This document shows positions 27,278 through 43,048 of a DNA stretch of 64,000 nucleotides, piece after piece; within the stretch, counting starts at the first letter, position 1, and the number at the start of each line of letters is the position of its first letter. The notes beneath the pieces were generated by a model, which saw nothing but the letters and a program-made list of their open reading frames with translations, did not search any database and was not told the DNA's origin. The DNA is from Pseudomonadota bacterium. Lineage in GTDB: Bacteria > Pseudomonadota > Gammaproteobacteria > Steroidobacterales > SZUA-146. Made by a program: the position numbers and the translations under genes. The stretch is taken from assembly GCA_039028935.1 (NCBI GenBank), contig JBCCHD010000001.1:135181-199180 (forward strand). The letters run 5' to 3'.

Positions 27278-27421
27278 ATCATTATGATGGCGAGTCACAC
27301 TGTTAAACGCCCCTGCACGCTTCATTACGCGCCAGGGAGATTCCGTCTTTTCATTGCGCCGTTGATTGAACTGCGATAATTGTCATACCCGCTAGCGCGG
27401 TCGCTGCAGCCAGGATTACAC

Positions 27422-28705
27422 GTGAGCAAAGCCATCACCCCCATTAAAGGTATGCCCGACATCGTGCCCGAGCAGATGCCGTACTGGCATCTGGCCGAGA
27501 ACGTCATACGACGCATTCTTGAGAGCTACGGCTATGATGAGTTGCGCACGCCCATGCTCGAGAAAACCGCACTTTTTCAACGCTCGATTGGTGACGAAAC
27601 CGATATCGTATCGAAAGAGATGTTTACCTTCGAGAGTCGCGGTGGCGAGAGTCTTAGCCTTCGTCCAGAAGCCACTGCAAGCTGTGTAAGGGCTGGCATC
27701 ACTCGCGGGTTGCTGCACAATCAGCGCCGTCGCGTGTATTACTACGGGCCGATGTTTCGCTACGAACAACCACAAGAAGGCCGCTATCGACAGTTCTATC
27801 AAATCGGCGCCGAGGCCTATGGTTTGGCCGGTCCTGATGTGGACGTGGAACTGCTGCTCATGCTGGCCCGTATTTGGCGCGGTTTGTCGCTCGATGGGCT
27901 CGCGCTCAAAATCAATTGCTTGGGTGCGAGCGAGGGCAGGGCGCAGTATATCGACACACTGCGTGCGTACTTTGACGGTCATCGAGAGGCGCTGGATGAG
28001 GACAGCGTGCGCCGACTCACGACTAATCCGCTGCGTATCTTGGACAGTAAAACCCCGTCAATGCAGACCCTGATTGATGAGGCGCCTCAGATGCAGGCGT
28101 TCTTGAGCGAGGACGAGCAGCGCTATTTCGAGGCGATTCTCGCGCGCCTTGACGATGCGGGTGTGCCATACACCGTCGAGCCACGGCTAGTGCGCGGCTT
28201 AGACTATTACACCGGCATGGTGTTTGAGTGGCAGACCGACCAGCTCGGCGCGCAGAATGCGGTCTGCGGCGGCGGCCGTTATGACCAGCTCGTCAAGCAG
28301 CTCGGCGGTCGGGATACGCCGGCGGTTGGGTGGGCGATGGGCATGGAGCGACTCATCGCCCTGTTGAGCCACAGCGATGCTACAATCCCCTCCCCCGACG
28401 CCAGGGTATACCTGGTGACAGTCGGCGAGCAGGCCGCTCGCGCCGGCGCGATGTTGCTCGAACGGCTGCGTGATGCGCTGCCCGACGTGCGCATGGTGGC
28501 GCACGGCGCTCAAGGCAGTTTTAAGAGCCAGCTGCGCGCGGCGGACAAAAGCGGTGCGGAACTGGCGCTGATACTTGGCGACGACGAAGTGGCGCGCCAG
28601 TCGCTTGCGATTAAGGCACTGCGACGGGACGCAGGGGCGCAGACCACCGTGGACTGGGACGAGATCGAGACGCAGGTGACTGCACTGCTCGAACACGCGC
28701 ATTAA
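27422..28705 (+). CDS. hisS: histidine--tRNA ligase
   Basis: Track ORF starts at TTG 27380. I prefer GTG 27422 (VSKAITPIKGMPDIVPEQ, compare E. coli MAKNIQAIRGMNDYLP). Class II motifs FRYEQPQEGRYRQFYQIG and GGGRYDQL. Confidence 0.92.
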   Translation: MSKAITPIKGMPDIVPEQMPYWHLAENVIRRILESYGYDELRTPMLEKTALFQRSIGDETDIVSKEMFTFESRGGESLSLRPEATASCVRAGITRGLLHNQRRRVYYYGPMFRYEQPQEGRYRQFYQIGAEAYGLAGPDVDVELLLMLARIWRGLSLDGLALKINCLGASEGRAQYIDTLRAYFDGHREALDEDSVRRLTTNPLRILDSKTPSMQTLIDEAPQMQAFLSEDEQRYFEAILARLDDAGVPYTVEPRLVRGLDYYTGMVFEWQTDQLGAQNAVCGGGRYDQLVKQLGGRDTPAVGWAMGMERLIALLSHSDATIPSPDARVYLVTVGEQAARAGAMLLERLRDALPDVRMVAHGAQGSFKSQLRAADKSGAELALILGDDEVARQSLAIKALRRDAGAQTTVDWDEIETQVTALLEHAH

Positions 28706-28768
28706 TTTTCGGTGTGGTGCGCTTAGCGCGCCCACCCTCCAAACTGATAACGAAACTGGAAGATAGAC

Positions 28769-29401
28769 GTGAACGATTACAACACAGACGAAGAAGAACT
28801 TGAGAAGCTGAAGAACTGGTGGAACGACAACAAGGTGTTTGTGGTCACAGGACTTGTTGCTGGTGGTGCCATTTTGTTTGGCTACAATTGGTACAAAGAC
28901 ATGACGCGCACGCGCGCAGAAACCGCATCGGCGGTGTTCAGCGAGCTTGAGACTGCGGTGGCTGGCAACGACCGCAACGTGGTGTTGTCCAAAGCAGCCG
29001 AACTCAAAAATGAGTTTTCAGCCACGCCGTATGATGCGCAAGCCGCCTTGTCATTGGCCAAGGTGCACGTCGACGCCGGTGATTTTGAGTCGGCCATTGC
29101 AGCGCTTAAAGATGCGGTCGACAGCGGTGGCCCTGAGCTGAGCCACATTGCGCGGCTGCGACTGGCGCGGGTGCAGCTTGCGGCTGGTGATACCGATGCG
29201 GCGCAAGCCACACTGAAGGTGCGCAATGAAGGCGAGTTCAGTCCGTTGTATCAAGAGGTTCGCGGTGATGTGTTTGTGGCCCTGGGCGACAATGAAGCGG
29301 CGATTGAGCAGTACAAATTAGCGCTCGCGCACGACATTCCGCTGGGCGACGTAAGCTTTTTGGAAATGAAGCTGCAAAACTTGGGTGCGTCTACGGACTG
29401 A
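28769..29401 (+). CDS. yfgM: YfgM-like membrane-anchored TPR protein
   Basis: EEELEKLKNWWNDNKVFVVTGLVAGGAILFGYNWY anchor. Position between hisS and bamB. Confidence 0.75.
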   Translation: MNDYNTDEEELEKLKNWWNDNKVFVVTGLVAGGAILFGYNWYKDMTRTRAETASAVFSELETAVAGNDRNVVLSKAAELKNEFSATPYDAQAALSLAKVHVDAGDFESAIAALKDAVDSGGPELSHIARLRLARVQLAAGDTDAAQATLKVRNEGEFSPLYQEVRGDVFVALGDNEAAIEQYKLALAHDIPLGDVSFLEMKLQNLGASTD

Positions 29402-29537
29402 GTGATGGGTGATGCGCGCGTCGCTGCATGGCCGCTGCATGAAACAACACGACTTCGCGTAAACGGACGCATCATGACAAAAGCAGCCTGATGCGTGGCA
29501 CTAAATGGTGTCGCGTTGATTAACATGAGGTGAGGGT

Positions 29538-30704
29538 ATGAAATCGGTTCGGTCGCTAATTTGGCTGGTCTTCGGCGTCGCATTGGCGGGCTGCCAGAAC
29601 GCCAAGGACGTTAAGCTAGAGCCAGCGGAATTGGTGCCTCTCACCAGCTCGACCGTCATCACCAAAGAATGGTCGACTAAACTGGGCGGCAATCGCAAAG
29701 TCAATCGTCCGGGTCTTGCGCCGGCGGGCAATGGTGCTCGGGTGTTTGCGGCATCGAGCGATGGTGTGGTGTCGGCTTTTGATGCGGTGACGGGCAAAGT
29801 CATCTGGCGTACAAACTTGGGCAAAGAGCGCGGTATCTCCGGAGGACCTGGCGTCGGCGGCAACATGGTCGCGGTGGGCACGGCAGAAGGCGAAGTGATT
29901 ACGTTATCGATCACCGACGGGTCCGAAATATGGACAGCCCGCGTGAGCAGCTCGGTGTTGTCAGCGCCAGCGGTGAGCACGCGCGCGGTCGCGGTGCGCA
30001 CCATCGACGGCCAATTGACCGCTTTGGACGGTACGACGGGGCTCGAATTGTGGAATGTGGATCGTCGTGTGCAGGGGCTCACCTACTACGGACTGGCCGA
30101 GCCGGTGTTTGCCTCGGGTGCCGTCGTGAGTGGGTTTGATAATGGCAAGATCGCGGCGGTGGACGTTGAAAGCGGTCGGGTGATTTGGGAGCGCTCGGTC
30201 GCCGAGCGACGTGGGCGCAACGAGTTTGAGCGACTGGCGGATATCGACGGACGCATTACCATCAACGGCGAAGACGCTTTTACTGTTGGCTTTCAAGGTC
30301 GTGCAATGCTGGTGTCGCTGCCGACAGGTCAGCCCATTTGGGCACAGGACATGTCGAGCCGCTACCCGGTGGCCGTGGACTGGAACCAGGTGATCATCAC
30401 CACCGACGAAGACTCGGTAGTGGCGCTCGATCGGCGCACCGGTGTGCAAAATTGGAAGCAGGATAGTTTGTTACGTCGCGAGGCCGGTGCGCCCGTGCTC
30501 GTGGGCACCTCGATCGCCGTAGGGGATTTCGACGGCTATGTACATTGGATTTCCGCGCTCGATGGCAGTTTCCAAGCGCGCACACGCGCCGGCAGTAGCC
30601 CCATTTCGGCGTCGCCACTGGTGATGGGCGATATGCTCTACGTACAAAATGACGACGGCGAGCTGCATGCGTTCAAAAAACCGGCGGTCATTGACGCACC
30701 CTAA
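29538..30704 (+). CDS. bamB: outer membrane protein assembly factor BamB (PQQ-like beta-propeller lipoprotein)
   Basis: Lipobox VALAGC. Repeated propeller blades. Lies between yfgM and der. Confidence 0.88.
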   Translation: MKSVRSLIWLVFGVALAGCQNAKDVKLEPAELVPLTSSTVITKEWSTKLGGNRKVNRPGLAPAGNGARVFAASSDGVVSAFDAVTGKVIWRTNLGKERGISGGPGVGGNMVAVGTAEGEVITLSITDGSEIWTARVSSSVLSAPAVSTRAVAVRTIDGQLTALDGTTGLELWNVDRRVQGLTYYGLAEPVFASGAVVSGFDNGKIAAVDVESGRVIWERSVAERRGRNEFERLADIDGRITINGEDAFTVGFQGRAMLVSLPTGQPIWAQDMSSRYPVAVDWNQVIITTDEDSVVALDRRTGVQNWKQDSLLRREAGAPVLVGTSIAVGDFDGYVHWISALDGSFQARTRAGSSPISASPLVMGDMLYVQNDDGELHAFKKPAVIDAP

Positions 30705-30873
30705 GCACCGTTAAGCGCGCTCGCCCTCAGCAACAAACAGCAAACCTGTTCGCTGCTTACCGTATACTTTTATTCAAACGCACCGGAGTACATCGACATG
30801 CGCGCTGCGCAGTCGGCAGTAAAACACGAGTACTCCGTTTCGGTCTGACGCGCTCTTAGCGCGACACTGAGGC

Positions 30874-32316
30874 ATGCGCACGATGAGCTCCGACAACGAA
30901 CAGCTAGAACCGCAGGACGAAACGAGTAGCGATATGCTGCCCGTGGTGGCGTTGGTGGGTCGACCCAATGTCGGTAAGTCCACGCTGTTCAACACGCTTA
31001 CTCGATCGCGTGATGCACTGGTGGCCGACCAACCTGGACTCACCCGCGATCGGCAGTATGGCTTTGGTCGTGTGGGCACCATTCCGTACCTAGTGGTGGA
31101 TACGGGCGGTTTGTCGGGTGATACCGATGGCCTAGATGGATTGATGGCGCAACAGACGCAGCGCGCCATCGAAGAAGCGGACTATGTCCTGTTTATGGTC
31201 GATGGGCGCGATGGCCTGTCGGCTACCGATCATCAGGTGGCGCAGCTGTTGCGCCGACACAATACACCCATGCAGCTTGTGGTGAATAAATCAGAAGGCC
31301 TCGATCCCGATGTGGTCGGCGCCGAATTCTATGCACTGGGCGCCGGCGATCCGGCGTCCATTTCGTCCGCCCATGGGCACAATGTTGCGGCGTTGATGGA
31401 CGAGGTGTTAGCCACGTTTCCAATACCGTCGGAAACCGCCGAAACGCACGGCATCAAGGTGGCGATCATTGGTCGACCAAATGTGGGTAAGTCCACGCTG
31501 GTAAATCGCTTGGTGGGTGAAGAGCGTGTGGTGGCATTTGATCGGCCGGGCACCACGCGCGACAGCGTTTATGTGCCGTTTGAGCGCGATGGTACGCAGT
31601 ACACACTGATCGACACCGCGGGCGTTCGTCGGCGTTCTAAGGTCGACGATGGCATCGAGAAGTTCAGTATTGTCAAAACGCTGCAGGCAATCGACAAAGC
31701 CGATGTAGTGGTGTGCATGCTGGACGCGCGCGAAAGCGTGACCGATCAGGATGTGCGCTTGCTGGGTCTTGCTCTGCATCGTGGGCGCGCTCTCACACTC
31801 GCGATCAATAAATGGGATGGCCTCAGTCCGTATCAGCGTGACACGATACGTCGAGAGCTCGAAGTCAAACTGCCGTTTGCCACATACATCGACAGTCATT
31901 TTATCTCGGCGCTGCATGGCAGTGGCGTCACGGATGTGCTGGCCTCGGTCATCGACTGTCATACGGCTGCTACACGCGAACTGCCCACCGCCGAGCTCAC
32001 GCGGGTGCTCGAAGACTGTGTGCAGTCCCATCCACCGCCTGCGTCGCGTGGTCGACGTCCCAAGCTGCGCTATGCGCATCAGGGTGGACGCAATCCGCAG
32101 ATCATTGTCATCCACGGCAATATGACCAATCACATTGCGGACAGCTACCGACGTTTTTTGGAAAATCGCTTCCGGAAGAACTTCCGACTGCATGGTGCGC
32201 CGGTGAAGATCGAATTTAAAAGCGGTAAGAACCCGTTTGCTGGTCGGCGTAACAAGCTCACCGATCGGCAAAAAAATCGTAAAAAACGTTTACTCAAACA
32301 CGTCAAACGGAAATAG
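30874..32316 (+). CDS. der: ribosome-associated GTPase Der (EngA)
   Basis: Two G domains: GRPNVGKSTLFN and GRPNVGKSTLVN, with DTGG/DTAG and NKSE/NKWD. KH-like C-terminus. The start may instead be ATG 30934 (MLPVVALVGRPN). Confidence 0.93.
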   Translation: MRTMSSDNEQLEPQDETSSDMLPVVALVGRPNVGKSTLFNTLTRSRDALVADQPGLTRDRQYGFGRVGTIPYLVVDTGGLSGDTDGLDGLMAQQTQRAIEEADYVLFMVDGRDGLSATDHQVAQLLRRHNTPMQLVVNKSEGLDPDVVGAEFYALGAGDPASISSAHGHNVAALMDEVLATFPIPSETAETHGIKVAIIGRPNVGKSTLVNRLVGEERVVAFDRPGTTRDSVYVPFERDGTQYTLIDTAGVRRRSKVDDGIEKFSIVKTLQAIDKADVVVCMLDARESVTDQDVRLLGLALHRGRALTLAINKWDGLSPYQRDTIRRELEVKLPFATYIDSHFISALHGSGVTDVLASVIDCHTAATRELPTAELTRVLEDCVQSHPPPASRGRRPKLRYAHQGGRNPQIIVIHGNMTNHIADSYRRFLENRFRKNFRLHGAPVKIEFKSGKNPFAGRRNKLTDRQKNRKKRLLKHVKRK

Positions 32317-33530
32317 TGATGAAGCCACTTGCGACCAACCGAAAGAAGACCTCTCAGCTGGGTTACACGTTTCTTGCCGTTGTGGCGGTGTTGGTGGTCC
32401 TCGGCGCGCTCAATCATGAAAAACTCTCGCGGCTTTACGCGGTGGTGACGCTGTTTGATGAAGACAAAATCGTCAATCATTTTTCCAACATGGATAACGT
32501 AATGCTATCGGCACCGCTGGTGCGCGATGGGCCCACCGACCCGTGGCCTGAGGCACGTGCGCCCATGCCAAATACCTTTGCGTATGACGGTGAGAATTTG
32601 GACGTCGAGGCGTTTTTGACCGACACCGCAACGACGGCGCTGGTGGTGATAAGCGACGGCGCCATTGTGCATGAACAGTATCGGCTCGGCACACAGCAGC
32701 AAGATCAGCGTATTTCGTGGTCCATGGCGAAGTCGTTTTTATCGGCGGTGCTGGGCATCGCGGTGGCCGAAGGGCAAATCGAATCACTGCGCGATCCTGT
32801 CGATAAGTATGTGCCGGCGCTTGGCGATTCGGCGTATGCCGGCGTGGCACTTGAAGACGTGCTGCACATGTCGAGCGGCATTCGTTTTAATGAAGACTAT
32901 TTCGATTTCAATAGTGACATCAATAAGATGGGCCGCGTTCTGGCGTTGGGCACCTCGATGGACGACTTCGCGATCAGTATGAACGAGCGCGATCGTGATG
33001 CCGGCACGCAGTGGCACTATGTGTCCATTGATACGCATGTGCTCGCCATGGTGTTGCGTGCGGCCACCGGCACTACGCTGACCGACTATCTATCCCGCCG
33101 TCTGTGGCAACCGTTGCGCACCGACGGTGACGGCTATTATCTGACCGATGGCGAGGGCGTGGCGTTTGCGCTGGGTGGGCTCAACATGCAGACGCGAGAC
33201 TACGCGCGGTTTGGTCAGCTTTTTCTAAATAACGGCAGCTGGAACGGTGAGCAGGTCATTCCGGCCGATTGGACCGAACGGTCAACGCGCAATAGTGCAC
33301 CCGGTATGAAACGCGTTGGTCAAGGCTACGGGTATCAATGGTGGCTGCCGCCCGAGGCAAACGGCGAATTCTATGCCGGAGGTATTTACGGGCAGTACAT
33401 TTACGTGAACCGCGAGAAGGGTGTTGTGGTGGCTAAAAATTCAGCGCACCGTACGTTCAACGCGCCCGGTGTGCGGATGAAGACAATTGCGTTCTTTCGG
33501 TCGCTCGCCGCGCATTACGATACCGAATAA
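32316..33530 (+). CDS. serine hydrolase, beta-lactamase (class C / PBP4*-like) family
   Basis: N-terminal TM/signal anchor. SxxK in ISWSMAKSF. YGYQWW near the C-terminus. Confidence 0.7.
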   Translation: MMKPLATNRKKTSQLGYTFLAVVAVLVVLGALNHEKLSRLYAVVTLFDEDKIVNHFSNMDNVMLSAPLVRDGPTDPWPEARAPMPNTFAYDGENLDVEAFLTDTATTALVVISDGAIVHEQYRLGTQQQDQRISWSMAKSFLSAVLGIAVAEGQIESLRDPVDKYVPALGDSAYAGVALEDVLHMSSGIRFNEDYFDFNSDINKMGRVLALGTSMDDFAISMNERDRDAGTQWHYVSIDTHVLAMVLRAATGTTLTDYLSRRLWQPLRTDGDGYYLTDGEGVAFALGGLNMQTRDYARFGQLFLNNGSWNGEQVIPADWTERSTRNSAPGMKRVGQGYGYQWWLPPEANGEFYAGGIYGQYIYVNREKGVVVAKNSAHRTFNAPGVRMKTIAFFRSLAAHYDTE

Positions 33531-34148: not shown

Positions 34149-37100
34149 TTAAAGGGTGTTGCAGTTGGCGAGTGAGCTGGGTCCCGGTGCGCCGAAGATG
34201 CTGTTGACCATGACCGGGTAGTCGAGGAAGTTGACCACACCGTCGCCGTTGAAGTCATGCAACGGGTCCGTGCTTTGGAACGCTCCGCCAAACAGCGCGA
34301 CATCCAAGAAATTCACTTCGCAGTCGTTGTTCGTGTCGGCGTCGCAGCGATTGCCAAAGCCATCGCCATCGGTGTCGAGCTGCGATGGGTTTGCCACATT
34401 GATGCAGTTGTCGTTGTTGTCTGTGAGACCGTCGGCGTCGCTGTCTACGGTGTCGTTGGGCAACGCATTCAGCTCATTGAGGTAGGCGCTGATCAACTGC
34501 GCACCAGCTGGATCAATGTCGAGCGTGGCGTGTGCGATGACCGCGTCGGTCAGATTGGCCGCCGAACCATCGTGAAGATACGGCGCCGACTGCCATAAGC
34601 CGTTCAGCGTGGGAGTGTCGATCGCGGCAAGTGTGCCACCCAGGCGGCCGCCGGATGCCGCGGTGATGGTGCCGATGTCGTGGGCACCACCGGTCGGTGA
34701 GTCCGTCGTCACCGTGCCGGCATGACAGGTTGCGCACCCCTGCTGAAGGAACAACGCTCGGCCCGCAATGGCGTCGGTGCTGAACGATTCGTCCGGTGCA
34801 CGAATGGGGTTCATGGGTGTGCTGGCCAGCGAGTTGAGATACGCGGCGAGCGCATCGAGATCGGCGCTGAGTCCTGCTTTGGGATCGCCCAGCGGTTGGC
34901 TCACGCTGCCGGCGAAATAATCGGCGTCGGCCATTAGACCGCTGCCGCCGGCAAAGTCGCGAATCTGCCCTTCGAAGTCTTGTACCTCGTCGAAGTTATT
35001 GCTCCAGTGTAAACCGCCGTGGGCCATGCCACCTTTGCCGATGAGCGAGATAGTGTTACGCAGGCCTTCGCCGAACTGAGTGAAGTCCCATACGCGGCCG
35101 TCGTCGTCGCCTTCGTTATGACACGATGCACAGCTCATGTAGTCGCTCGCGGCGAGCCGGTCGTCGAGCGCATCCGTAAAGAGCTGCTTGCCGAGCAAAA
35201 CGTTTGCCGATAACGCTTCGCTATTCACCATCGTGGTTGTCTGCAACTCGGTCGCGGCAAACGACACATCTTGCGAGATGGACGACACGTCGATGACGCT
35301 GACGCTGCGGTCCATAAAATTATGCGCATAGAGTCGATTACCATCAGCGGAAAGCACCACACTTTGCGGCGCACGACCCACATCCAGCCGCAACAGTTGT
35401 CCGCCATTGGACAGATCAATGACCGCCACGTGTCGGCTGGTCTCCAGTGCCACGAATAGTTTTTCACCATAGGCACCAATGACTGCACCCGTGGCCACAC
35501 TCGAGTTGTCGTGATCGATTCGCGCGGTGAGTAGCTCGGCGCTGTTGATTAGGTTTACTTGAGACGTCACGGCGCGCACGGTGTGGTCAAAATCGAGTGT
35601 GCTGCCGTCTCGGGCGGTGCCGCCTAGAATATTGTCTTGCTTGGACGGCACATAGGCCATCATGCCGTCGGGCGCGATGACCGGTGCGTTGAGATAATTG
35701 GGAATGCCCGGTCCTTGTGTTTCTGAGGCCACGACGTTGCGATGTTGAAGCCGAATCTCGCCTTCTGGTTGAAGCGTATTGGCGTTGACGCGACGTATCA
35801 GGCCGCCGTCGGTCGCCTGCGGTGTGACGAGCGTTGTGGACTCACCGGTTAACTGTGGCGTGATGAATTGCGTCACGAGCAGTTGCGCGCCGTCAGCCGT
35901 GATCGCAAGGTGTCGAGGTCGATAGCCAAGCGGCGCCATGCCGTTGATGTTTGCGGTGGCAACGTCGATACGCAATAACTCCGCGCTTGCCTCCAGCACC
36001 ACATAGGCGCTGCCGCCGCCGGGAGCGATGACAATACCATGCGGCGCGGAGCCGCGCGGTAAAAGCACGCTGCGTGTTACGTTGCGCGTGGCCACATCGA
36101 TGATGCTAATTGAGTCGTCGGCTTTGTTACTCACCCATACCTCATTTGTGCTGTCGCTATAGGTCAGTCCCCACGGTTTTGCCCCGACGTCGATCTCGTC
36201 GATTTGCACGCCTGCCGCTGACAGCACGCCCACCGTGTCGTTGTCCGGATTGACATTCCATAGGTTGGCGTCGACCGCGTTGCCCAGCCGAATGAGCGTA
36301 GAGGAACTCACCGCACGCGGGGCGAGCGAAATATTGTCGCCAATGCCGTCGCCGTTGCTGTCACTGGATTCGCGTGGGTTACTGGCGAAGACGTCGCCAT
36401 TGTCTCCGACGCCGTCACCATCGCTGTCCGCCGATTCATTGGGATCGCTGGGGAACGCGTCGCTGTTGTCGCCCACGCCATCAAGATCACTGTCCAGCCA
36501 TTCGGTATTGTCGTTGGGGAACGCGTCGATACTGTCCGCGTAGCCATCGCCATCGGAGTCAACCGGGCCGAGTCCATCAAGGGCTTGCAGGAGCGCGAAG
36601 GCGTTGGAAAATTCGGCGTGCAGACCTTCGGCGATAAATAGCTCAAGCGACGCGCCGCCGCCATTCTCAAAAAAGATGAGTTCGATGTCATGTACGCCCA
36701 CCCCTAGGTTGACCGAACCGAAGTTGTCGACGGGCGGATGGGTGAGGTTGTCTTCTATGAGCGTTTGACCGTTCACACGCAGTCGCACACCGTCATCAGA
36801 GTTAGTACCAAACGTGTAGTCGCCGTCTTTGACAATACTGATCTGTCCGGTAACGCGTACCGCGAGGGTATCGAGGTAGGGAAATAGCACGTTGTTGCCA
36901 AAATGACCGGTGCCACCTAAGCCATCCCAATAGTCGACGGTTGCAGTCGACTGGAACTCAGCCGCCACGCCGCCGCTATTGAGCAATGCTTCGGTAATTG
37001 CCAGTGTGTTGACCGCGTCGTCCGAGTCGACAAACAGCACATTGAACGTGCCATCACCGGCGTTGCCGAGTTCACCGTTAACCGGCTGCAGTAGTTCAAA

Positions 37101-39554
37101 CGCGTCTGAAAACGCGGTGAGCGAACCAGGTGCTAAGAACAACTCGAGCGTGGCGCCGCCGCCATTCTCAAAGTACACCAGCTCAATTTCATGAATGCCG
37201 GGGTCCAAATCGATAGTCCCGAAGCGGTTCGCTGGACCATGTAGCGCATCGTCTACGATTACGTCCTGGCCGTTCACACGTAGACGTAAGCCGTCATCAG
37301 AGTTAGTGCCAAAGGTGTACGTGCCCGCCGTGTAAATACCAAAACGACCGGTCACTCGTGTCACAAACGTATTGAGATACGGAAACACATCGTCATTGGT
37401 GAAGTTGCCGGTGCCGCCCTGATTGTCGACAATATTGACTTGTGGCAATGCTTGAAACTGAGCGTTCACACCACCGCTTGCGAGCAGCGCATCGGAGTCG
37501 GCGAGCGAAGTGACCGCGCTATCCGAATCGACAAATAGAAAATTGAATGTCGGCGTGTTGTCCGCACGCGGCAGAAGATGTGCGTTGGCCCAGTCAGCAT
37601 GGTCGCAGTTGATGTTGTCACCGCCGTCATTCACGCGCAGCGACAATGTGCTCACGCCGGCAATGCCCAAGTCCACGTCGACCGCGCCGCTTTGGTAGTC
37701 AAGCACTGGACTGGTGTAGAGCGGCAAATCATCACCAAACACGCTGAATTGTACGCTGCCGCACGCGGTGTCGACCACTTCGTCATCCACACCGAGCGTT
37801 GATTTAAAGCGGCTATAGTCGCCCGCGACATCGATGTCGATTTGCGACACTGCGTGCACACCCACACCTTTTGCGTAGGTGGTACCGCGAATGCTCAGTG
37901 TTGTGCCATCGCCTGCGGCCGTCTCGCCGTTGCTCATGTCGCGTTCGGCGGGGCCCCATCCGTTAACTTCGTTTTCCCACGCGAGATCCGAGATATAGAT
38001 CTCATCACCGGTGGGCACATCGGGCGGGCGCTGTACCTGCAAAATGTGGCCGACGGAAGGCGCCCCATTGGCGCCGATCGCGAACATCCAGTAATAGCCC
38101 GGCACCACGACATTGGGATTGGGGTTAAGCGAAAGTTCATACGTGCCGGCGCCCGTTGCCGTGAAGTCGATCGGAATAAAACGCTGGTCCGTGTTGATGG
38201 CGTGCGTTGTTGCCGACAGGCGCACCATGGAAAATTTCGTGACCCCGTCGCTGGCCGAAACGTTCAATACGTCGCCGGCGCGTGCGGTGGACGCCGCCGC
38301 TGTGATTTGTGGTCGGGTCGCGTTCGAGCCGTCTGCGTTAAATAAGTACGGTGGCGAAAAAATTTGTCCGTCAAGATGATTGGCGCTACAGCCACCACAG
38401 GCGCCACCACCGGCGGCCAATACGCGACCGTCACGCAGCAGCAGACCAATCGAATGGTAGTTGCGTGGCACGGTCATGCTCGCGAGCACTTCCCATTCAT
38501 CCAGATCGGGCTTGTAGAGCTCCGCCGCAAACACACTCGCGTCATCATTAAACAGTCGACCGTCGGTGTTGCCGCCCACCACCAATACGTCGCCCGTCGG
38601 CAGCATCACCGTGTTGGAGTTGGCGCGGCCCGTGTTGATCGGTGCTGCATTCGTCACGACCGGTGCAGGTCCATTCAAGTCGACCAGATAAACATCGTTT
38701 GTCACCGCCGGGTTGGTCGTGCGGTCATAGCCGCCCACTAAGATGACTTTACCGACATCGTACGTGGTGACATTACCGAACATGCGGGTGCGTGTGCCGG
38801 TTGGCTGACCCAAATCGGTCACCCCGCCTGAACCATACGGATCAAACTCATGCCATGTGGGCGTCGGGCCCCCATGAAACACATTGCCATTTGGGCCCAC
38901 GGCCATCTGCGCCCACCATTGCATATTGGCGGCACTGTTGACGACCGGTTCGCCATTGGCGGCGTTTTGCTCGTTGAGTAAGTCGATCATGGTCGCGCCG
39001 GGTGTGAGCGTCCAGGTGTTTGAGGCGGGCGAGAACCGTTCCGACGAATCGCCGGCGGTATTGGCGAAGGTGGAGAAAATGGTGTTGTTGGGCAGCGTGA
39101 GATTTGTACCGTACCAGCGTGTGCGGTTCATTGTGGGTAAAGGTGTCCATTCGAGTGCCACCGGATCGAACGCGCTCGTGCGTACGTCATTGGGGTTACC
39201 GCCGGAGGCGACAAATCGGCCATCTTCCAACGTCGACACGCCTGCGCAAAACATGTCGTGGAAATCACTGTCGACATTGGTGAACGTTTCGGTGGTGGGG
39301 TCAAACAACGACGAGTGGGTAAACTCCCGGTTGGCCGGAAACGCGTTCACTTCGGTCGAGGAATAGGACACGATGCGACCGTCGGGCAGGGTGCCCGCGG
39401 TAATCGCGATATGCGGCCAGGCGATCGGGCTGCCCCAGGCACCATCGGTCGCATTGCGTAGTTGGGTTTCCTTGTCGCCATCATCAGCGAACGCGGTCAT
39501 GGACAGAACGCACGCCGCAACGACGGCGCTGGCTAGCACACTTGGCTTGATCAT
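34149..39554 (-). CDS. 1801-aa secreted mosaic protein. Domain order: copper radical oxidase (galactose oxidase/GlxA-like), NPCBM, 2x PA14, TSP3 repeats, beta-propeller, di-haem cytochrome c peroxidase-like module, TSP3/dockerin-like tail
   Basis: Single uninterrupted ORF. Signal peptide MIKPSVLASAVVAACVLSMTAFA. Domain evidence is listed in the sub-features below. Confidence 0.9.
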   Translation of the reverse strand: MIKPSVLASAVVAACVLSMTAFADDGDKETQLRNATDGAWGSPIAWPHIAITAGTLPDGRIVSYSSTEVNAFPANREFTHSSLFDPTTETFTNVDSDFHDMFCAGVSTLEDGRFVASGGNPNDVRTSAFDPVALEWTPLPTMNRTRWYGTNLTLPNNTIFSTFANTAGDSSERFSPASNTWTLTPGATMIDLLNEQNAANGEPVVNSAANMQWWAQMAVGPNGNVFHGGPTPTWHEFDPYGSGGVTDLGQPTGTRTRMFGNVTTYDVGKVILVGGYDRTTNPAVTNDVYLVDLNGPAPVVTNAAPINTGRANSNTVMLPTGDVLVVGGNTDGRLFNDDASVFAAELYKPDLDEWEVLASMTVPRNYHSIGLLLRDGRVLAAGGGACGGCSANHLDGQIFSPPYLFNADGSNATRPQITAAASTARAGDVLNVSASDGVTKFSMVRLSATTHAINTDQRFIPIDFTATGAGTYELSLNPNPNVVVPGYYWMFAIGANGAPSVGHILQVQRPPDVPTGDEIYISDLAWENEVNGWGPAERDMSNGETAAGDGTTLSIRGTTYAKGVGVHAVSQIDIDVAGDYSRFKSTLGVDDEVVDTACGSVQFSVFGDDLPLYTSPVLDYQSGAVDVDLGIAGVSTLSLRVNDGGDNINCDHADWANAHLLPRADNTPTFNFLFVDSDSAVTSLADSDALLASGGVNAQFQALPQVNIVDNQGGTGNFTNDDVFPYLNTFVTRVTGRFGIYTAGTYTFGTNSDDGLRLRVNGQDVIVDDALHGPANRFGTIDLDPGIHEIELVYFENGGGATLELFLAPGSLTAFSDAFELLQPVNGELGNAGDGTFNVLFVDSDDAVNTLAITEALLNSGGVAAEFQSTATVDYWDGLGGTGHFGNNVLFPYLDTLAVRVTGQISIVKDGDYTFGTNSDDGVRLRVNGQTLIEDNLTHPPVDNFGSVNLGVGVHDIELIFFENGGGASLELFIAEGLHAEFSNAFALLQALDGLGPVDSDGDGYADSIDAFPNDNTEWLDSDLDGVGDNSDAFPSDPNESADSDGDGVGDNGDVFASNPRESSDSNGDGIGDNISLAPRAVSSSTLIRLGNAVDANLWNVNPDNDTVGVLSAAGVQIDEIDVGAKPWGLTYSDSTNEVWVSNKADDSISIIDVATRNVTRSVLLPRGSAPHGIVIAPGGGSAYVVLEASAELLRIDVATANINGMAPLGYRPRHLAITADGAQLLVTQFITPQLTGESTTLVTPQATDGGLIRRVNANTLQPEGEIRLQHRNVVASETQGPGIPNYLNAPVIAPDGMMAYVPSKQDNILGGTARDGSTLDFDHTVRAVTSQVNLINSAELLTARIDHDNSSVATGAVIGAYGEKLFVALETSRHVAVIDLSNGGQLLRLDVGRAPQSVVLSADGNRLYAHNFMDRSVSVIDVSSISQDVSFAATELQTTTMVNSEALSANVLLGKQLFTDALDDRLAASDYMSCASCHNEGDDDGRVWDFTQFGEGLRNTISLIGKGGMAHGGLHWSNNFDEVQDFEGQIRDFAGGSGLMADADYFAGSVSQPLGDPKAGLSADLDALAAYLNSLASTPMNPIRAPDESFSTDAIAGRALFLQQGCATCHAGTVTTDSPTGGAHDIGTITAASGGRLGGTLAAIDTPTLNGLWQSAPYLHDGSAANLTDAVIAHATLDIDPAGAQLISAYLNELNALPNDTVDSDADGLTDNNDNCINVANPSQLDTDGDGFGNRCDADTNNDCEVNFLDVALFGGAFQSTDPLHDFNGDGVVNFLDYPVMVNSIFGAPGPSSLANCNTL
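34200..34457 (-). other. C-terminal Cys-containing TSP3 repeats plus dockerin/EF-hand-like tail (aa ~1700-1785)
   Basis: DSDADGLTDNNDNCINVANPSQLDTDGDGFGNRCDADTNNDC, then DFNGDGVVNFLD. Confidence 0.55.
34515..35207 (-). other. domain: di-haem cytochrome c peroxidase / MauG-family module (aa ~1450-1680)
   Basis: LLGKQLFTD...SCASCH (nt 35118-35132), GCATCH (nt 34722-34736) and IDTPTLNGLWQSAPYLHDGSAANLTDAV. Confidence 0.75.
35265..36302 (-). other. domain: YVTN/YncE-like beta-propeller repeats (aa ~1085-1430)
   Basis: Recurrent blades: PWGLTYSDSTNEVWVSNKADDSISIIDVAT, PHGIVIAPGGGSAYVVLEASAELLRIDVAT, PRHLAITADGAQLLV and PQSVVLSADGNRLYAHNFMDRSVSVIDVS. Confidence 0.65.
36333..36563 (-). repeat. thrombospondin type 3-like calcium-binding repeats (aa ~998-1074)
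   Basis: DSDGDGYADSIDAFPNDNTEWLDSDLDGVGDNSDAFPSDPNESADSDGDGVGDNGDVFASNPRESSDSNGDGIGDN. Confidence 0.75.
36579..37550 (-). repeat. tandem duplication of a PA14 domain (aa ~669-824 and ~836-992), period about 167 aa
   Basis: Copy 1: TFNFLFVDSDSAV...YTFGTNSDDGLRLRVNGQDV...IELVYFENGGGATLELF. Copy 2: TFNVLFVDSDDAV...YTFGTNSDDGVRLRVNGQTL...IELIFFENGGGASLELF. Confidence 0.8.
37569..38006 (-). other. domain: NPCBM (NEW2) putative carbohydrate-binding module, aa ~517-662
   Basis: IYISDLAWENEVNGWGPAERDMSNGE...IRGTTYAKGVGVHAVSQIDIDV...GVDDEV...CDHADWANAHL. Confidence 0.75.
38031..39452 (-). other. domain: galactose oxidase / glyoxal oxidase-like kelch propeller plus C-terminal Ig-like (DUF1929) domain, aa ~35-508
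   Basis: DMFCAGVS (Cys103), TRWYGTN (Tyr148), PRNYHSIGLLLRDGRVLAAGGGACGGC (Tyr366/His367) and RLSATTHAINTDQRFIP (His451). These correspond to galactose oxidase Cys228, Tyr272, Tyr495/His496 and His581. Confidence 0.8.
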
Positions 39555-39614
39555 TTTTTAACGCCCGTTTTGTCGCAGAGGCGACATCGCCCGCTGCGGT
39601 GATTCTTTTTATTA

Positions 39615-39626
39615 CTGATTAATCAG
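39615..39626. promoter_or_regulatory. perfect 12-bp palindrome CTGATTAATCAG abutting the -12 element
   Basis: Read directly from the sequence. It overlaps the predicted -12 element and transcription start zone of the sigma-54 candidate. Confidence 0.35.
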
Positions 39627-39641
39627 CATGTTTCGTGCCAA
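39625..39641 (-). promoter_or_regulatory. candidate sigma-54 (RpoN) promoter for the 1801-aa gene
   Basis: The minus strand reads TTGGCACGAAACATGCT versus consensus TGGCACG-N4-TTGCW. GG and GC are at the exact canonical spacing, with one mismatch (A for T). It lies about 70-85 nt upstream of the ATG at 39554. Confidence 0.5.
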
Positions 39642-40106
39642 CGCGTGCCATCTCAAGGTAATCCATGTGCTTAAGGAGTGCGACCGCTACTCTTTTGAGT
39701 CGAGATGTAAAGTCGCTCGACGCAAAGTAGTCACGAGTCAGACACTTACGTTCGATGGCCGCTTGGATTACGTCTAATCGATGCAGTGGACAGGTGGCGG
39801 ATATGGAACAGTCTCGGCGCGACACGGGGATGAAGTCCAAGGGGTCACGTGCCGGCTTTCTGCGTTCGAGTGTCAGGCCTCAGGCTTCAGGCTTGCTGTT
39901 TCGGATTATCGGTGCGCATTGCACGGATTCGGTCGTTTGCGTTCGACGTCAAAAGGCCGCTCGATTGTGGTTTGAGTCGAGACGGTTTTTGTCCCTGGGT
40001 ATGTTGGTGTGATCGATGTCGGTCTCTAGCGGGCGAGCCGCGGGAAAGGCGTTGTGCGACAACTGCTTGCGCGGTGGCGATATACCGATCGTTAAGCCGG
40101 GCGAAT

Positions 40107-42569
40107 TTAGCGTGCCGATGTGTCGTCGCTGAGCACATTGAGAAACGCAACGAGTTCTTTGATCGCGCGCTCGTCGAGCGACTCGATGGGCACGAGTTCG
40201 TGCCAGGTTGTGCGTTTGTCGGCGGGATCCGAGTAATACACCAGCACATCGGTCAGTGTGTCGAACCGGCCGTCGTGCATATACGGTGCAGTGGTGCGCA
40301 ATCCACGCAGGCCTGGCGTTCGAAAGGCGCCGTCGAGTAAGCGCGGTACTTCCGCGGCACGCGCGTCGTCGAGATGTCGACAGACGGCGTCCGCCTCGCC
40401 GTATTCACTCGCGCAATTGAATGGGTCGTTCAGCAAGGCCTCGATACCCGCGAGTCGCCCGGTATCGTGCCGCCCGTTTGCGTTGGTGCCGGTACCGATA
40501 TTATGAAACTGCCCGTTCGTGAATCGTGGACCGTTGTGACAGCTCACACACTGCGTGTCGGCCGAAATGAAGCGTTTGAGTCCGGCGATTTCGGTGTGGG
40601 TTAACAGATTGCTGTGCTGGGGCGCGTCGCTGAGTAAGTCGTCCACCCATACATCGAAGCGCGTAGGAGTGAACACAAATCGTCGTTGATGGGCGGCCAG
40701 CGCTTTGCCCAGACGCACAAACGTGCGATTCAGGCGGGATTCTTGAGATGGGCTCAACGCGTTGTCGTTGAGGGCGCGGACAAACGTCTCCGGCAGGGGT
40801 TCGAATGCGTTTGCATACAGTGTCGCCAGCGCCGAATCGTTGGCCACCAAACGCACCGCATCGTAGCGGTTACCCCCCATCTCGCCCGGCGCTTCGATGG
40901 GTTCAAGCGCTTGCGACCAAAGGCTGTCTTTGCGCCCATCCCAATAATAGTGCTGTCGCCAAGCAACCCCCACCAGCCCCGGCGTGTTTCGCGTTAATGG
41001 CGCGAGCCCCGTTGCGGTTGCTTGGCCATCAGCCAGTCCAAGAGGTGACTGATGACACGTGGCGCACGCGACCGTTTGGGTGGCGCTCAATCGCGCGTCG
41101 TGAAACAGCGCTTGGCCGAGCGCCGCGGCGGCGGCACTGTTAAACACGTCGTTGCCCGGATCGTTGGGTGCCTCGCCTAACGACGTGAGCGACAGTGTTG
41201 CTAACAGTGTTTTTTCGGACGCAGTAAACCTGGTTGACGTTGGCGTCGCTGACGGTTGAGCCTGAGGATTGCTGTAAGCGGGCGAACTCAGCGACTCGAG
41301 AAAGGCCACAAGGTCCGTGCGCTGGGCGGCCGACAAATTAAGGGTCACCAGCTCGTTGTCGTCAGGTGGCGCAGAGTAGTGGGCGAGCACCGCGTCGAGT
41401 GACTCCGCCCGACCATGATGAAAGTAGGGTGCGGTGTGCGCGACGTTTCGCAATGTAGGTGTTTTGAACGCGCCGGCCATGTCGCCGTGCTGGTCGCGTG
41501 AGAGAAAGCGCAGTGCCGAACATTCATTCGCATCGGCGTCGCTATGAGGGCCAAGGCAGTTGAACTGGTCAAGCAAGACCGCCTGAACGCCAAACAAACG
41601 ACCAAAGTCGAGCACCTCACCACGCGCCGACGCCGCGTGTGCGGTGCCTTCAATGGCACCCGTGCCGATGTTGTGAAAGTCACCGTTTGTGAGGAGCGGT
41701 CCGCTGTGGCACTGCAGGCAACGCGATGCCTCAAAATCAATAAAGAGCTTGGCACCGCGCCGCGCCGCCTCGCTGAGTAACGGTGCGGCCGCGTCTTCGC
41801 CGTCTTGAATGAGCGTATCCACATAGCGGTCAAACGGCGCGGGTCGTGGGGTCAACGTGCGCTCATAGGCTGCGAGGGCTTTGCCCACATTGGCATAGGC
41901 TGAATTGACCGCTTGGCGTGTGCGTGCGGGCATGCGGAACCAGGCGTTCTGCCCGGCCTGATCGGCAAATTCGCCAGCGTGCGGGGGTAGCCTTCCCGCG
42001 CGCAGAACGGGTGGCAACGGACCAAAAACCGCCGCGTAGGTGTCGATATAGTCCGGATCTTGCGCAATGAGGTTCACAGCTGCGGTGCGACTTCCGCCCA
42101 TCTCATCGGGTGCTTCGATTGGAATGAGCGCCTGCGACCAGAGCGAGTCGCGTCGGCCGTCCCAATAAAACCAATGCTGCCACGCGCCGCCGATCAACGT
42201 TGGTGTATTGCGCGACAAGGTTCTAATGCCCTGGCCGGTCGGTAAACCGTCGGTAAAATACTTTTGCGGTTGATGACAGCTGGCACACGACTGCGTACCG
42301 TCGCCGCTGAGGCGCGTATCGAAAAAAAGTGCTTCACCCAATCGAACCGCGTCGGGGTGGTTGGCGACGCGATTTGATGGTGCTTTCGGTGTCGGCAAAC
42401 TCGCCAGACTCAGCGAGCGCAAGATGGACACTTCCTCTTCTGTCCAAAAGCGTGGTGTCGGCGAACAACTCACGAGCAACGCGAGCCAACCCACGCTGAG
42501 ACTGATGCGCAGGGTCATTCTGATCGGCAGATTAATGCGGCTCACGTCGAAACGCCCAGTCGATAGCAC
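40107..42569 (-). CDS. lipoprotein made of two tandem di-haem cytochrome c peroxidase/MauG-family modules (four CXXCH)
   Basis: Lipobox WLALLVSC. CASCH at 42273-42287, CLQCH at 41706-41720, CATCH at 41052-41066, CVSCH at 40536-40550. Each half repeats the pattern LF.D.RLS...C..CH, NTP.L, YWDGR.DSLWSQA, IEAP.EMGG, C..CH.GP..TNG.FHNIGTG, F.TP.LR, APY.H.GR. The start may be ATG 42518 (MTLRISLSVGW). Confidence 0.85.
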   Translation of the reverse strand: MLSTGRFDVSRINLPIRMTLRISLSVGWLALLVSCSPTPRFWTEEEVSILRSLSLASLPTPKAPSNRVANHPDAVRLGEALFFDTRLSGDGTQSCASCHQPQKYFTDGLPTGQGIRTLSRNTPTLIGGAWQHWFYWDGRRDSLWSQALIPIEAPDEMGGSRTAAVNLIAQDPDYIDTYAAVFGPLPPVLRAGRLPPHAGEFADQAGQNAWFRMPARTRQAVNSAYANVGKALAAYERTLTPRPAPFDRYVDTLIQDGEDAAAPLLSEAARRGAKLFIDFEASRCLQCHSGPLLTNGDFHNIGTGAIEGTAHAASARGEVLDFGRLFGVQAVLLDQFNCLGPHSDADANECSALRFLSRDQHGDMAGAFKTPTLRNVAHTAPYFHHGRAESLDAVLAHYSAPPDDNELVTLNLSAAQRTDLVAFLESLSSPAYSNPQAQPSATPTSTRFTASEKTLLATLSLTSLGEAPNDPGNDVFNSAAAAALGQALFHDARLSATQTVACATCHQSPLGLADGQATATGLAPLTRNTPGLVGVAWRQHYYWDGRKDSLWSQALEPIEAPGEMGGNRYDAVRLVANDSALATLYANAFEPLPETFVRALNDNALSPSQESRLNRTFVRLGKALAAHQRRFVFTPTRFDVWVDDLLSDAPQHSNLLTHTEIAGLKRFISADTQCVSCHNGPRFTNGQFHNIGTGTNANGRHDTGRLAGIEALLNDPFNCASEYGEADAVCRHLDDARAAEVPRLLDGAFRTPGLRGLRTTAPYMHDGRFDTLTDVLVYYSDPADKRTTWHELVPIESLDERAIKELVAFLNVLSDDTSAR

Positions 42570-42577
42570 GGCGCACC

Positions 42578-43048
42578 TCAGAAAGTCAGATCGATCTCAA
42601 AACGCACATCATCGGTGCCCAGTGCTGAACCGATGCGGTAGCTGAGGACCCAGGCACCGGCCATGTTGAAGCGCACGCCCTCAATTCGATAGCGGCCGTC
42701 GCCAAGATGGTCGGTGATTTGAGGCTGTGTGGGGAGTCCATGGCCGTGACCGGGCATACCGCCACCCATTTGTATACGCGCCGGGAACACCGCGTCGCCG
42801 TCGGTATCCGTCAGTGTTAACACCCACTCGTGATAGTCGCCGATGAGCACATCGCCATCGCGCGGTTCAATGCGCACGTGATAGAGGCCGTTACCGGAGG
42901 CCTGTTGCCAACCCATTGCGGCGGGCTCGGATGGCGCATCGGCCCGTTCGCACGCGGTGGTGACAAACAGCACCAACAGCACTGGCAGCAACCGGAACGC
43001 ACGTCGGCGAGCGGACGGTGAATGGGCGGCATGTTGAAGTTCGATCAT
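42578..43048 (-). CDS. small lipoprotein with YtkA/FixH-like Ig-fold domain and a His/Met/Gly-rich loop; twin-arginine-like signal
   Basis: ORF 42578-43399 trimmed to MIELQHAAHSPSARRRAFRLLPVLLVLFVTTAC (RRxF plus lipobox). YHEWVLTLTDTDGDAVFPARIQMGGGMPGHGHGLPTQP...GDGRYRIEGVRFNMAGAWVLSYRI matches the YtkA-like pattern. The upstream part of the track ORF is AT-rich and looks non-coding. Confidence 0.6.
   Translation of the reverse strand: MIELQHAAHSPSARRRAFRLLPVLLVLFVTTACERADAPSEPAAMGWQQASGNGLYHVRIEPRDGDVLIGDYHEWVLTLTDTDGDAVFPARIQMGGGMPGHGHGLPTQPQITDHLGDGRYRIEGVRFNMAGAWVLSYRIGSALGTDDVRFEIDLTF

Follow-up and report, generated by a model that had tools for sequence, protein, structure and literature searches.

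The stretch analysed here (64,000 nucleotides, hereafter the window) covers positions 135,181 to 199,180 of contig JBCCHD010000001.1 in GenBank assembly GCA_039028935.1, a Pseudomonadota bacterium of the gammaproteobacterial order Steroidobacterales (SZUA-146). Its minus strand carries a gene for a real secreted bacterial protein, in which a copper radical oxidase (CRO) of the galactose oxidase (GAO) type is fused to a two-haem module of the CCP/MauG superfamily. The gene is a single uninterrupted open reading frame (ORF) of 1801 aa with an ATG start. Such continuity had been proposed in a preliminary description made from the window sequence alone, and it is borne out by the translation, which has zero internal stops, and by a 78% identical relative from an independent metagenome-assembled genome (MAG; locus L005), likewise encoded by an uninterrupted ORF of identical architecture. 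The same protein is deposited in GenBank as MEM7081249.1, 'MAG: NPCBM/NEW2 domain-containing protein [Pseudomonadota bacterium]', encoded on a contig of 280 kb. A CRO followed by two CXXCH haem motifs was found in all 120 best database relatives, except for one with a single CXXCH. Since this architecture recurs in hundreds of independent assemblies, isolate genomes included, an assembly chimera or a frameshift artefact was ruled out. Secretion had also been predicted previously and, indeed, the N-terminus, MIKPSVLASAVVAACVLSMTAFA followed by DD, reads on inspection as a Sec signal peptide.

The domain organization of the protein and the positions of its key residues are compiled in Table 1. 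Besides Kelch motifs, GO-like_E_set and NPCBM, Pfam reported two stretches of PA14 (79 bits), CCP_MauG (residues 1450-1524, 34 bits versus a cut-off of 25.6), Cytochrom_C and RoxA-like_Cyt-c (1648-1669). From the Pfam set that had been anticipated, GO-like_E_set, NPCBM, both PA14 and CCP_MauG were therefore recovered, whereas Glyoxal_oxid_N (31 bits) stayed under its cut-off of 37.5 and TSP_3 was not reported in the scan of the 1801-aa protein. The assignment of TSP3 repeats to residues 998-1076 and 1702-1771 comes instead from NCBIfam matches to MtsC/MtsD and from thrombospondin/COMP matches in the PDB. The C-terminal TSP3/dockerin-like tail probably serves anchoring. The nucleotide positions given earlier for the two CXXCH motifs proved exact.

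Table 1. Features of the fusion gene and of the two upstream genes, in window coordinates.
Feature	Coordinates	Strand	Basis or location
Whole gene: CRO / carbohydrate-binding domains / TSP3 / YVTN-propeller / di-haem / TSP3	34149..39554	-	Pfam, NCBIfam, translation
Sec signal peptide, residues 1-23 (…SMTAFA, then DD)	39486..39554	-	Inspection only
Seven-bladed kelch propeller of CRO, residues ~35-413	38316..39452	-	PDB alignments, family invariance
C103 codon	39246-39248	-	Kelch propeller
W147-Y148 codons	39111-39116	-	Kelch propeller
Y366-H367 codons	38454-38459	-	Kelch propeller
GO-like E-set domain, residues 414-507	38034..38315	-	Pfam, 72 bits
Copper ligand H451 codon	38202-38204	-	Within GO-like E-set
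NPCBM/NEW2 carbohydrate-binding domain, residues 518-660	37575..38003	-	Pfam, 151 bits
Two PA14 domains, residues ~668-826 and 833-991	36582..37553	-	Pfam; repeat boundaries from sequence
TSP3-type Asp-rich calcium-binding repeats, residues 998-1076	36327..36563	-	NCBIfam MtsD, minimal homologues, family consensus
YVTN/YncE-type seven-bladed beta-propeller, residues ~1090-1450	35205..36287	-	NCBIfam, PDB, AF2, Foldseek
Di-haem c domain, CCP/MauG superfamily, residues ~1451-1690	34485..35204	-	Pfam, NCBIfam, PDB
Haem 1 motif C1475ASCH	35118-35132	-	Di-haem domain
Inter-haem W1517 codon	35004-35006	-	Di-haem domain
Haem 2 motif C1607ATCH	34722-34736	-	Di-haem domain
H1675 codon, predicted haem 2 sixth ligand	34530-34532	-	Di-haem domain
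C-terminal TSP3 / dockerin-like calcium-binding tail, residues 1702-1801	34152..34451	-	NCBIfam MtsC (E 1e-12), thrombospondin/COMP
Tandem MauG/MbnH-like di-haem enzyme, 820 aa	40107..42569	-	NCBIfam, sequence
YtkA/CtaK-like lipoprotein	42578..43048	-	Pfam YtkA, 31.9 bits (cut-off 25.9)

The N-terminal domain aligns end to end, over residues 37-507, with solved galactose oxidases (E 3e-89 for 9g8h/9g43 and 4e-69 for F. graminearum 1gof), in agreement with the range of ~35-508 proposed before; the GlxA structure 4unm gives a weaker match (E 6e-32). This full-length alignment, together with the Pfam Kelch and GO-like_E_set matches, delineates a kelch propeller followed by an E-set domain (DUF1929). 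In the alignments with 9g8h, 9g43 and 6ryw, C103 lies in the motif HDMFC, Y148 in RGY, Y366-H367 in YHS and H451 in TH-NTDQR, and all the cofactor residues previously read from the sequence are thus placed in CRO motifs of solved structures. We take them to be the equivalents of Cys228, Tyr272, Tyr495-His496 and His581 of GAO, respectively. Both C103 and Y148 are kept in 120/120 relatives, as well as in a second CRO subtype described below, while Y366 is found in 120/122, H367 in 122/122 and H451 in 120/120. As judged from the alignments, the Cys and the Tyr are positioned for the thioether-linked Tyr-Cys radical cofactor, and the positions of the axial Tyr and of the two His copper ligands are all present in the domain (for the roles of the GAO cofactor residues, see PMC11611005). 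Sequence comparison assigns this CRO to the AA5 superfamily, nearest to enzymes of the GAO type.

An orthologue of GlxA was ruled out, with a score of 158.5 bits for the NCBIfam equivalog NF052501 against its cut-off of 800. An invariant Trp precedes the cross-linked Tyr (R146-W147-Y148), like W288-Y289 of GlxA. On the other hand, T166 stands where GAO has its stacking Trp290, a site with a small, variable residue across the family. This loss is a subfamily feature and does not exclude AA5 membership. In glyoxal oxidase (GLOX) and in the GAO variant W290H, the loss of the stacking Trp raises the potential of the radical and lowers its stability and lifetime (PMC11611005). CROs require a one-electron oxidant and can be activated by peroxidases (PMC11611005, PMC12951238), with reported CRO couples of +0.43 and +0.64 V (PMC11611005). 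Since the stacking Trp is missing here, this CRO could depend strongly on an activating oxidant.

The preliminary description had placed a CcpA/MauG-type module at residues ~1450-1680. A genuine two-haem domain of the CCP/MauG superfamily is indeed found there, but its predicted key ligand is a His and it represents only half of a larger unit, for a YVTN propeller at ~1090-1450, N-terminal to the haem domain, had been overlooked. NCBIfam identified YVTN/PQQ-ABC-type propeller repeats at ~1092-1243, and the PDB matches of the propeller comprise 1l0q (E 5e-25) and the beta subunit of hydrazine synthase (HZS; 5c2v_B). When residues 1080-1700 were modelled with AlphaFold 2 (AF2) from a 42-sequence alignment, a mean pLDDT of 84 and a pTM of 0.89 were obtained, which predicts a single rigid body comprising propeller and di-haem domain. 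A Foldseek comparison of this model with the PDB returned HZS-beta among the best matches (target-normalised TM-score 0.78, root-mean-square deviation 3.3 Å); all matches were to propellers, and no solved chain in the PDB spanned both the propeller and the di-haem domain. Within the propeller, W1128, H1172, R1214-H1215, Y1287, D1307-N1308, D1349-N1350, H1411 and M1414-D1415-R1416 are invariant. Several of these residues occupy the equivalent 'P-x-G' position of successive blades, which suggests that the propeller carries a conserved pocket on one of its faces.

In the haem domain, the invariant elements are C1475ASCH, C1607ATCH, H1516-W1517 (including the inter-haem Trp of bacterial cytochrome c peroxidases, bCCPs) and PYLH1661DG, to which the motifs DGR-WD, GEGLR and NFDE-QDFE-QIR, proper to the family, are added. 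Shewanella CcpA (3o5c) matches this domain with an E of 2e-11. In the ungapped alignment of the two, the invariant H1675, 14 residues past H1661, falls on the Met of '…AVNTM', the window counterpart of which is '…AVIAH'. From P. aeruginosa CCP Met275 and MauG Tyr294, we presume the Met of '…NTM' to be a haem ligand. Among 257 family database proteins, 256 have exactly two CXXCH and 254 have a His at the sixth-ligand position, as do 72/72 scorable genomic ORFs (of 86). The sixth ligand of the six-coordinate haem is a Met in bCCPs and a Tyr in MauG and BthA (PMC6405878). Haem 2 is predicted to be His/His ligated, neither CcpA-like (Met) nor MauG-like (Tyr). Hence, of the bCCP hallmarks, the two CXXCH, the CCP_MauG fold and the inter-haem Trp are present and the His/Met ligation is absent (H1675), and the His/Tyr ligation of MauG, MbnH and BthA is likewise absent from the fused module, which has a His at that position. 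No His was found in the loop after the first CXXCH, from which inactive bCCPs draw their distal ligand, either in the PDB alignments or in the family alignment. In BthA, the substitution Y463H abolishes the bis-Fe(IV) state and preserves H2O2 reduction with an external donor, and the bis-Fe(IV) signature is also lost in MauG Y294H (PMC6405878). Since the fused module has a natural His at this ligand position, peroxidase-type rather than MauG-type chemistry is predicted. By analogy with these variants, we infer that it reduces peroxide and has ligands of the HZS-gamma/RoxA type, and that it is not a MauG-type protein oxidiser.

This architecture is neither unique to the window nor rare, and it belongs to a large, widespread family. 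When the whole protein was used as query, 1301 of the 8000 candidates scored reached E <= 1e-10. Glyoxal_oxid_N, GO-like_E_set and CCP_MauG occur together in nearly all of the best 120; in these 120, the two CXXCH are 127-132 residues apart, with one exception. An exhaustive HMMER search with the module only gave 1350 clusters (50% identity) at E <= 1e-30. The CRO is always N-terminal to the module, and the spacer between them, 56-1034 aa long, holds variable lectin-like domains (NPCBM, PA14, discoidin, ricin, malectin, PKD, He_PIG). In the relatives examined a TSP3 linker precedes the propeller, and even the shortest forms retain it. A genome scan found 144 relatives, hosted by Gammaproteobacteria (Chromatiales, Steroidobacteraceae, Rheinheimera), Burkholderiales (Rubrivivax, Methylibium, Piscinibacter defluvii SH-1, Rhizobacter sp. 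Root404), Myxococcota and Planctomycetota; Marinobacter, Thalassotalea, Cellvibrionaceae and Oleiphilus were further hosts in the database search. Of the 80 fusion ORFs in the collected loci plus the window, 69 have as their N-terminal domain a CRO of a distant subtype (phmmer E ~1e-35, versus 1e-180 for the module), which retains Glyoxal_oxid_N and the E-set, together with identical C, RWY, YH and H residues. The module has therefore been joined to at least two divergent CRO lineages. Moreover, a CRO is present in at least 106 of 137 (>=77%) further representative module proteins, and N-terminal fragments make up most of the remainder.

The preliminary description could not match this architecture to any described enzyme. 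This holds for the literature, since no description of the CRO/propeller/di-haem fusion or of its cassette was found in full-text papers outside subscription-only ones, but not for the databases, where the large family is already present in RefSeq. Its members are public under uninformative names, such as 'NPCBM/NEW2', 'PA14', 'malectin' or 'discoidin domain-containing protein' and 'YVTN family beta-propeller protein'. Two loci (L044:997-10903 and L139:1-9446) each harbour two paralogous CRO/propeller/di-haem genes in tandem. In a Planctomycetota MAG, an in-frame TAG (L065:6817-6819) breaks the conserved GEGL(R/K)NT motif of the di-haem domain after GEG; it is a sequencing error or the mark of a pseudogene.

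Upstream of the fusion, on the same strand, lie two genes that had been missed in the preliminary description, one MauG-like and one YtkA-like. The 820-aa MauG-like neighbour has four CXXCH forming two complete di-haem units, each with a Tyr in the place of the sixth ligand. It scores 298 bits with TIGR03791 and 265 bits with TIGR04039, below the equivalog cut-offs; its start is likely M18, with the lipobox LLVSC. Its relatives elsewhere are single units of 378-423 aa. The YtkA-like protein, whose start is likely MIELQ…, has the lipobox FVTTAC and an invariant His/Met-rich motif, GGMPGHGHGLP, and from its sequence it is a putative copper chaperone. YtkA corresponds to CtaK of B. subtilis, a lipoprotein implicated alongside Sco in building the CuA centre (PMC13344008).

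Both genes adjoin the fusion in the window and in three other loci (L001-L003), and the MauG-like gene adjoins it in the locus of the closest relative, L005, and in L006, hosts including a Myxococcota genome. In Marinobacter sp. LN3S78 (L001:1-28646), the 2881-aa homologue is encoded inside an exopolysaccharide (EPS) biosynthesis cluster with glycosyltransferases, a Wzx-type flippase, acyltransferases and an MBOAT protein; there, the fusion gene is followed by the YtkA-like gene, the MauG-like gene and a gene for a PA14/TSP3 protein. Metagenomes were scanned with the YtkA-like protein as seed, and loci of >=12 kb were counted (n=24). In 24/24 of them a MauG-like gene comes after the YtkA-like gene or is joined to it in a fusion, and the CRO fusion adjoins this cassette in 12/24. 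The linkage between cassette and fusion is thus strong, without being obligatory; like the domain identities, the cofactor residues and their conservation across the family, it is a matter of direct observation. In six loci (L107, L137, L141, L148, L152 and L162) a single ORF encompasses both the YtkA-like part and the MauG-like part, which are apparently fused. These single ORFs support the idea that both proteins work together.

With regard to the wider context, the trio of genes sits in a housekeeping block, with rlmN, hisS, bamB and der on one side (24473-33530) and xseA, guaB and guaA on the other (50296-55042), and it gives the impression of having been inserted into a conserved core region. 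Some 8 kb from the CRO fusion, an 815-aa ORF (47801-50248, minus strand) encodes a pyrroloquinoline quinone (PQQ) beta-propeller dehydrogenase with a C-terminal cytochrome c, of the quinohaemoprotein type; it is the second fusion of a catalytic domain with a c-type cytochrome in the window. Between the MauG-like and fusion genes extends a non-coding gap of ~555 nt (39555-40106). The only ORF in this gap (39849-40340, plus strand) had no family match, and a promoter/terminator scan and an Rfam search of 33-44.5 kb found nothing above background.

To account for this organization, we propose that a glycan-targeted CRO is tethered to its own peroxide-consuming, activating haem module, an interpretation to which we give a probability of about one half. 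In this scheme, all the catalytic steps and the direction in which electrons flow are our inference. In the first unit (residues 35-507), the CRO would convert O2 to H2O2 while oxidising a carbohydrate at a primary alcohol or an aldehyde hydrate, and the NPCBM and PA14 domains would hold this carbohydrate substrate. The second unit (1090-1690), composed of the rigid YVTN-propeller and di-haem c module, would be tied to the first by the calcium-binding TSP3 repeats. Haem 1, with the His of its CXXCH and no distal His loop, could be an open catalytic haem reacting with H2O2, and the His/His-ligated haem 2 could act as an electron relay; the module would most likely consume the H2O2 made by the neighbouring CRO. 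The resulting high-valent haem might then take electrons from the inactive, one-electron-reduced Cu(II)-Tyr form of the CRO, restoring the active radical in the manner of HRP, DtpA and the fungal PerOx, or alternatively from a reductant bound in the conserved propeller pocket. With either electron source, protection and continued activity of the oxidase would require no separate peroxidase. The upstream lipoproteins probably participate in periplasmic maturation, the CtaK/YtkA-like protein by loading copper and the tandem MauG/MbnH-like His/Tyr di-haem enzyme by performing an oxidative maturation step. By analogy with GlxA/DtpA and the fungal AlcOx/PerOx pairs, H2O2 coupling and activation on one polypeptide appear plausible.

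Several observations weigh against this proposal. For the minimal homologue P0050, the AF2 model of residues 146-1337 (CRO, TSP3, propeller and di-haem; 1192 aa) has a pTM of 0.55 and a low-confidence linker, and therefore no fixed interface between CRO and haem domain is predicted. Bis-His haems are usually low-potential, and by analogy with HZS gamma (PMC12607021) such a haem would suit the entry of electrons from an external donor better than the direct oxidation of a Tyr-Cys at +0.4 to +0.6 V. Within the haem domain, Q1525 aligns with the bCCP Gln, and the acid-base Glu of bCCPs has no clear aligned counterpart. Furthermore, complete forms devoid of a CRO exist. One of them, P0256, is a 681-aa lipoprotein made of the module only (L085:10001-12046), with no CRO within 10 kb; another, P0250, comprises a signal peptide, PKD, the module and Big_7. 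The module therefore seems to have a function of its own, and it is autonomous yet predominantly CRO-linked. The neighbours of the P0256 gene are xanthine-dehydrogenase-type genes, protocatechuate dioxygenase genes and a GMC oxidoreductase gene. Finally, the other 12/24 cassettes of the metagenome scan stand alone among unrelated housekeeping genes, and most of the Burkholderiales-type fusions have no YtkA-like or MauG-like neighbours.

An alternative is a tandem two-step oxidase, in which the propeller/di-haem module would use the H2O2 of the CRO as a co-substrate to oxidise a second, pocket-bound substrate. The latter might be the aldehyde made by the CRO, for a net conversion of alcohol and O2 to acid and H2O in which peroxide is not released, or else phenolic or protein groups serving matrix cross-linking. 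Indeed, the invariant propeller ring of His, Arg, Asp/Asn, Tyr and Trp is typical of a binding or catalytic pocket, and the propeller is rigidly packed on the haem domain in the predicted model. The stand-alone module found beside oxidoreductases, GMC oxidoreductase included, points to an autonomous enzyme, and the carbohydrate-binding domains and the EPS-cluster context point to a polymer substrate. We know, however, of no di-haem enzyme of the CCP superfamily that oxidises sugars or aldehydes, and we regard a tandem oxidase as rather unlikely. The same idea can be extended to a three-centre extracellular oxidase (Cu-Tyr radical, two c-haems and propeller pocket) that recycles its own peroxide and has a dedicated maturation cassette. 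On a cell-surface or EPS glycan, its CRO would make aldehyde and H2O2, and its propeller/di-haem module would spend this H2O2 on a second oxidation, of the aldehyde to a uronic acid or for matrix cross-linking, amounting to a net four-electron oxidation with zero peroxide release; the MauG/MbnH-like enzyme and the CtaK-like chaperone would install copper and, possibly, a protein-derived cofactor. As a whole, this extended scheme is speculative and its odds are poor.

It is also conceivable that there is no redox coupling at all and that two independent extracellular activities share a carbohydrate-binding scaffold, acting on the same surface or matrix. The long, variable and flexible spacers (56-1034 aa), the lack of docking in the AF2 prediction and the existence of CRO-less module proteins are all in line with this possibility, and large multidomain surface proteins often mix unrelated modules. 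Nevertheless, the same module is present on at least two divergent CRO subtypes, in constant order, and the CRO carried by >=77% of the sampled module proteins is hard to explain without functional coupling. We hold independent activities to be quite improbable.

In a dehydrogenase mode, electrons would leave Cu(I)-Tyr through haem 1 and haem 2 towards an external acceptor, bypassing O2, as in cellobiose dehydrogenase or the quinohaemoprotein alcohol dehydrogenases; the acceptor might be a cytochrome, a metal oxide or a partner resembling lytic polysaccharide monooxygenases. The bis-His haem 2 resembles the surface electron-transfer haem of HZS gamma, and fusions of catalytic domains with cytochromes are common, the PQQ dehydrogenase with its cytochrome c being an example in this very window. 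Yet the CCP/MauG fold and the open haem 1 point to small-molecule chemistry rather than to pure electron transfer, and no CRO/haem interface is predicted. In addition, with a lower bound of ~+0.15 V for CRO couples, a CRO at ~+0.15 to +0.64 V would need to reduce a bis-His haem of typically lower potential. We consider the dehydrogenase mode very unlikely. Least credible is an in-cis maturase, whose MauG-like di-haem domain would install the Cys-Tyr link or another protein-derived cofactor once per molecule: although the domain belongs to the CCP/MauG superfamily and CROs need oxidative maturation (PMC11611005), this option was rejected as the principal interpretation because an invariant His replaces the MauG-defining Tyr. 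Against it also stand other points: the corresponding Tyr-to-His mutants of BthA and MauG lose bis-Fe(IV), the GAO Cys-Tyr link forms spontaneously with Cu and O2 (PMC11611005), CRO-less modules exist, and a true MauG-like (His/Tyr) enzyme, encoded next door, is a better candidate.

Tethering of a CRO to its own activating haem module, if it operates as we propose, would have several implications. CROs are valued biocatalysts that need an added peroxidase or oxidant and are inactivated by their own H2O2. To our knowledge, partnerships between CROs and peroxidases have so far been found only as separate proteins (GlxA/DtpA and fungal AlcOx/PerOx). A widespread bacterial family that links a CRO covalently to a haem module, often with copper-chaperone-like and MauG-like genes alongside, would provide a directly testable system for the natural activation and protection of CROs, and the fusion itself is a candidate self-activating biocatalyst. 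It would also give a first function to a large uncharacterised branch of the CCP/MauG proteins, the propeller-linked bis-His type, and it suggests that bacterial exopolysaccharides are remodelled oxidatively. Marinobacter, Thalassotalea, Piscinibacter and Rhizobacter provide cultured hosts, with homologues such as WP_406978506.1 of Marinobacter sp. LN3S78 and WP_181902246.1 of Thalassotalea euphylliae.

Comparison with known systems reveals both shared and distinctive traits. With GAO and AA5_2 (1gof, 9g8h/9g43), the window protein shares the seven-bladed kelch propeller, the E-set and the Cys-Tyr, axial Tyr-His and distal His motifs, but it lacks the N-terminal CBM32 and the stacking Trp290, and it has ~1300 further residues, including two haems. 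The maturation of GlxA from Streptomyces lividans depends on Sco, a copper chaperone, and on DtpA, a peroxidase (PMC4736821); DtpA works on GlxA-derived H2O2, and GlxA acts on an extracellular glycan (PMC4736821, PMC11611005). GlxA is likewise a bacterial CRO with the W-Y motif, and the GlxA/Sco/DtpA set follows the same logic as the fusion with its YtkA-like and MauG-like neighbours. However, the partners of GlxA are separate proteins of unrelated folds (a DyP peroxidase with b-type haem, and Sco), whereas the window has a c-type di-haem domain in cis. In Colletotrichum and Magnaporthe, PerOx activates the CRO AlcOx by protein-protein electron transfer (PMC11611005, PMC12951238). Again, a CRO is paired in nature with a haem peroxidase of its own, though in this case the two are fungal, secreted separately and encoded head-to-head, and the peroxidase is of class II type with a b-haem.

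As for the haem module, the best specific profile match for residues 1389-1617 is HZS beta-gamma (NF052342, E 7e-17), with 60.8 bits versus a cut-off of 1250. The arrangement of a YVTN-type propeller with a MauG/CCP-like di-haem subunit and the predicted His/His ligation are consistent with HZS, and the motifs SCASCH…G-WD, HD-GT and FDTPTL…Y-HDG are shared with HZS gamma, in which haem gamma-II is bis-His and the proposed site of electron entry, gamma-I being catalytic (PMC12607021). Unlike HZS, the module has only the four CXXCH cysteines, without the third Cys for an extra covalent haem link; its scores are far under the family cut-offs, its hosts are aerobic heterotrophs, it is fused to a CRO, and no HZS-alpha-like gene was found in the window. 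By sequence, the haem domain therefore resembles HZS gamma/beta-gamma most, without being a hydrazine synthase. The bCCPs (CcpA, MacA), MauG, BthA and RoxA have in common with it the fold, the CXXCH ~130 residues apart, the inter-haem Trp and PY-H-G. The predicted sixth ligand of haem 2, a His, distinguishes it from the bCCPs (Met) and from MauG/BthA (Tyr), the loop after its first CXXCH has no His, and the domain is always attached to a propeller. Lastly, the upstream cassette recalls MbnH/MbnP and CorB/CorA, where a MauG-like di-haem enzyme stands beside a copper-binding surface protein. Here too, a MauG/MbnH-like His/Tyr di-haem enzyme is paired with a small lipoprotein, but this partner is YtkA-like rather than MbnP/CorA-like, and the di-haem enzyme is tandem-duplicated.

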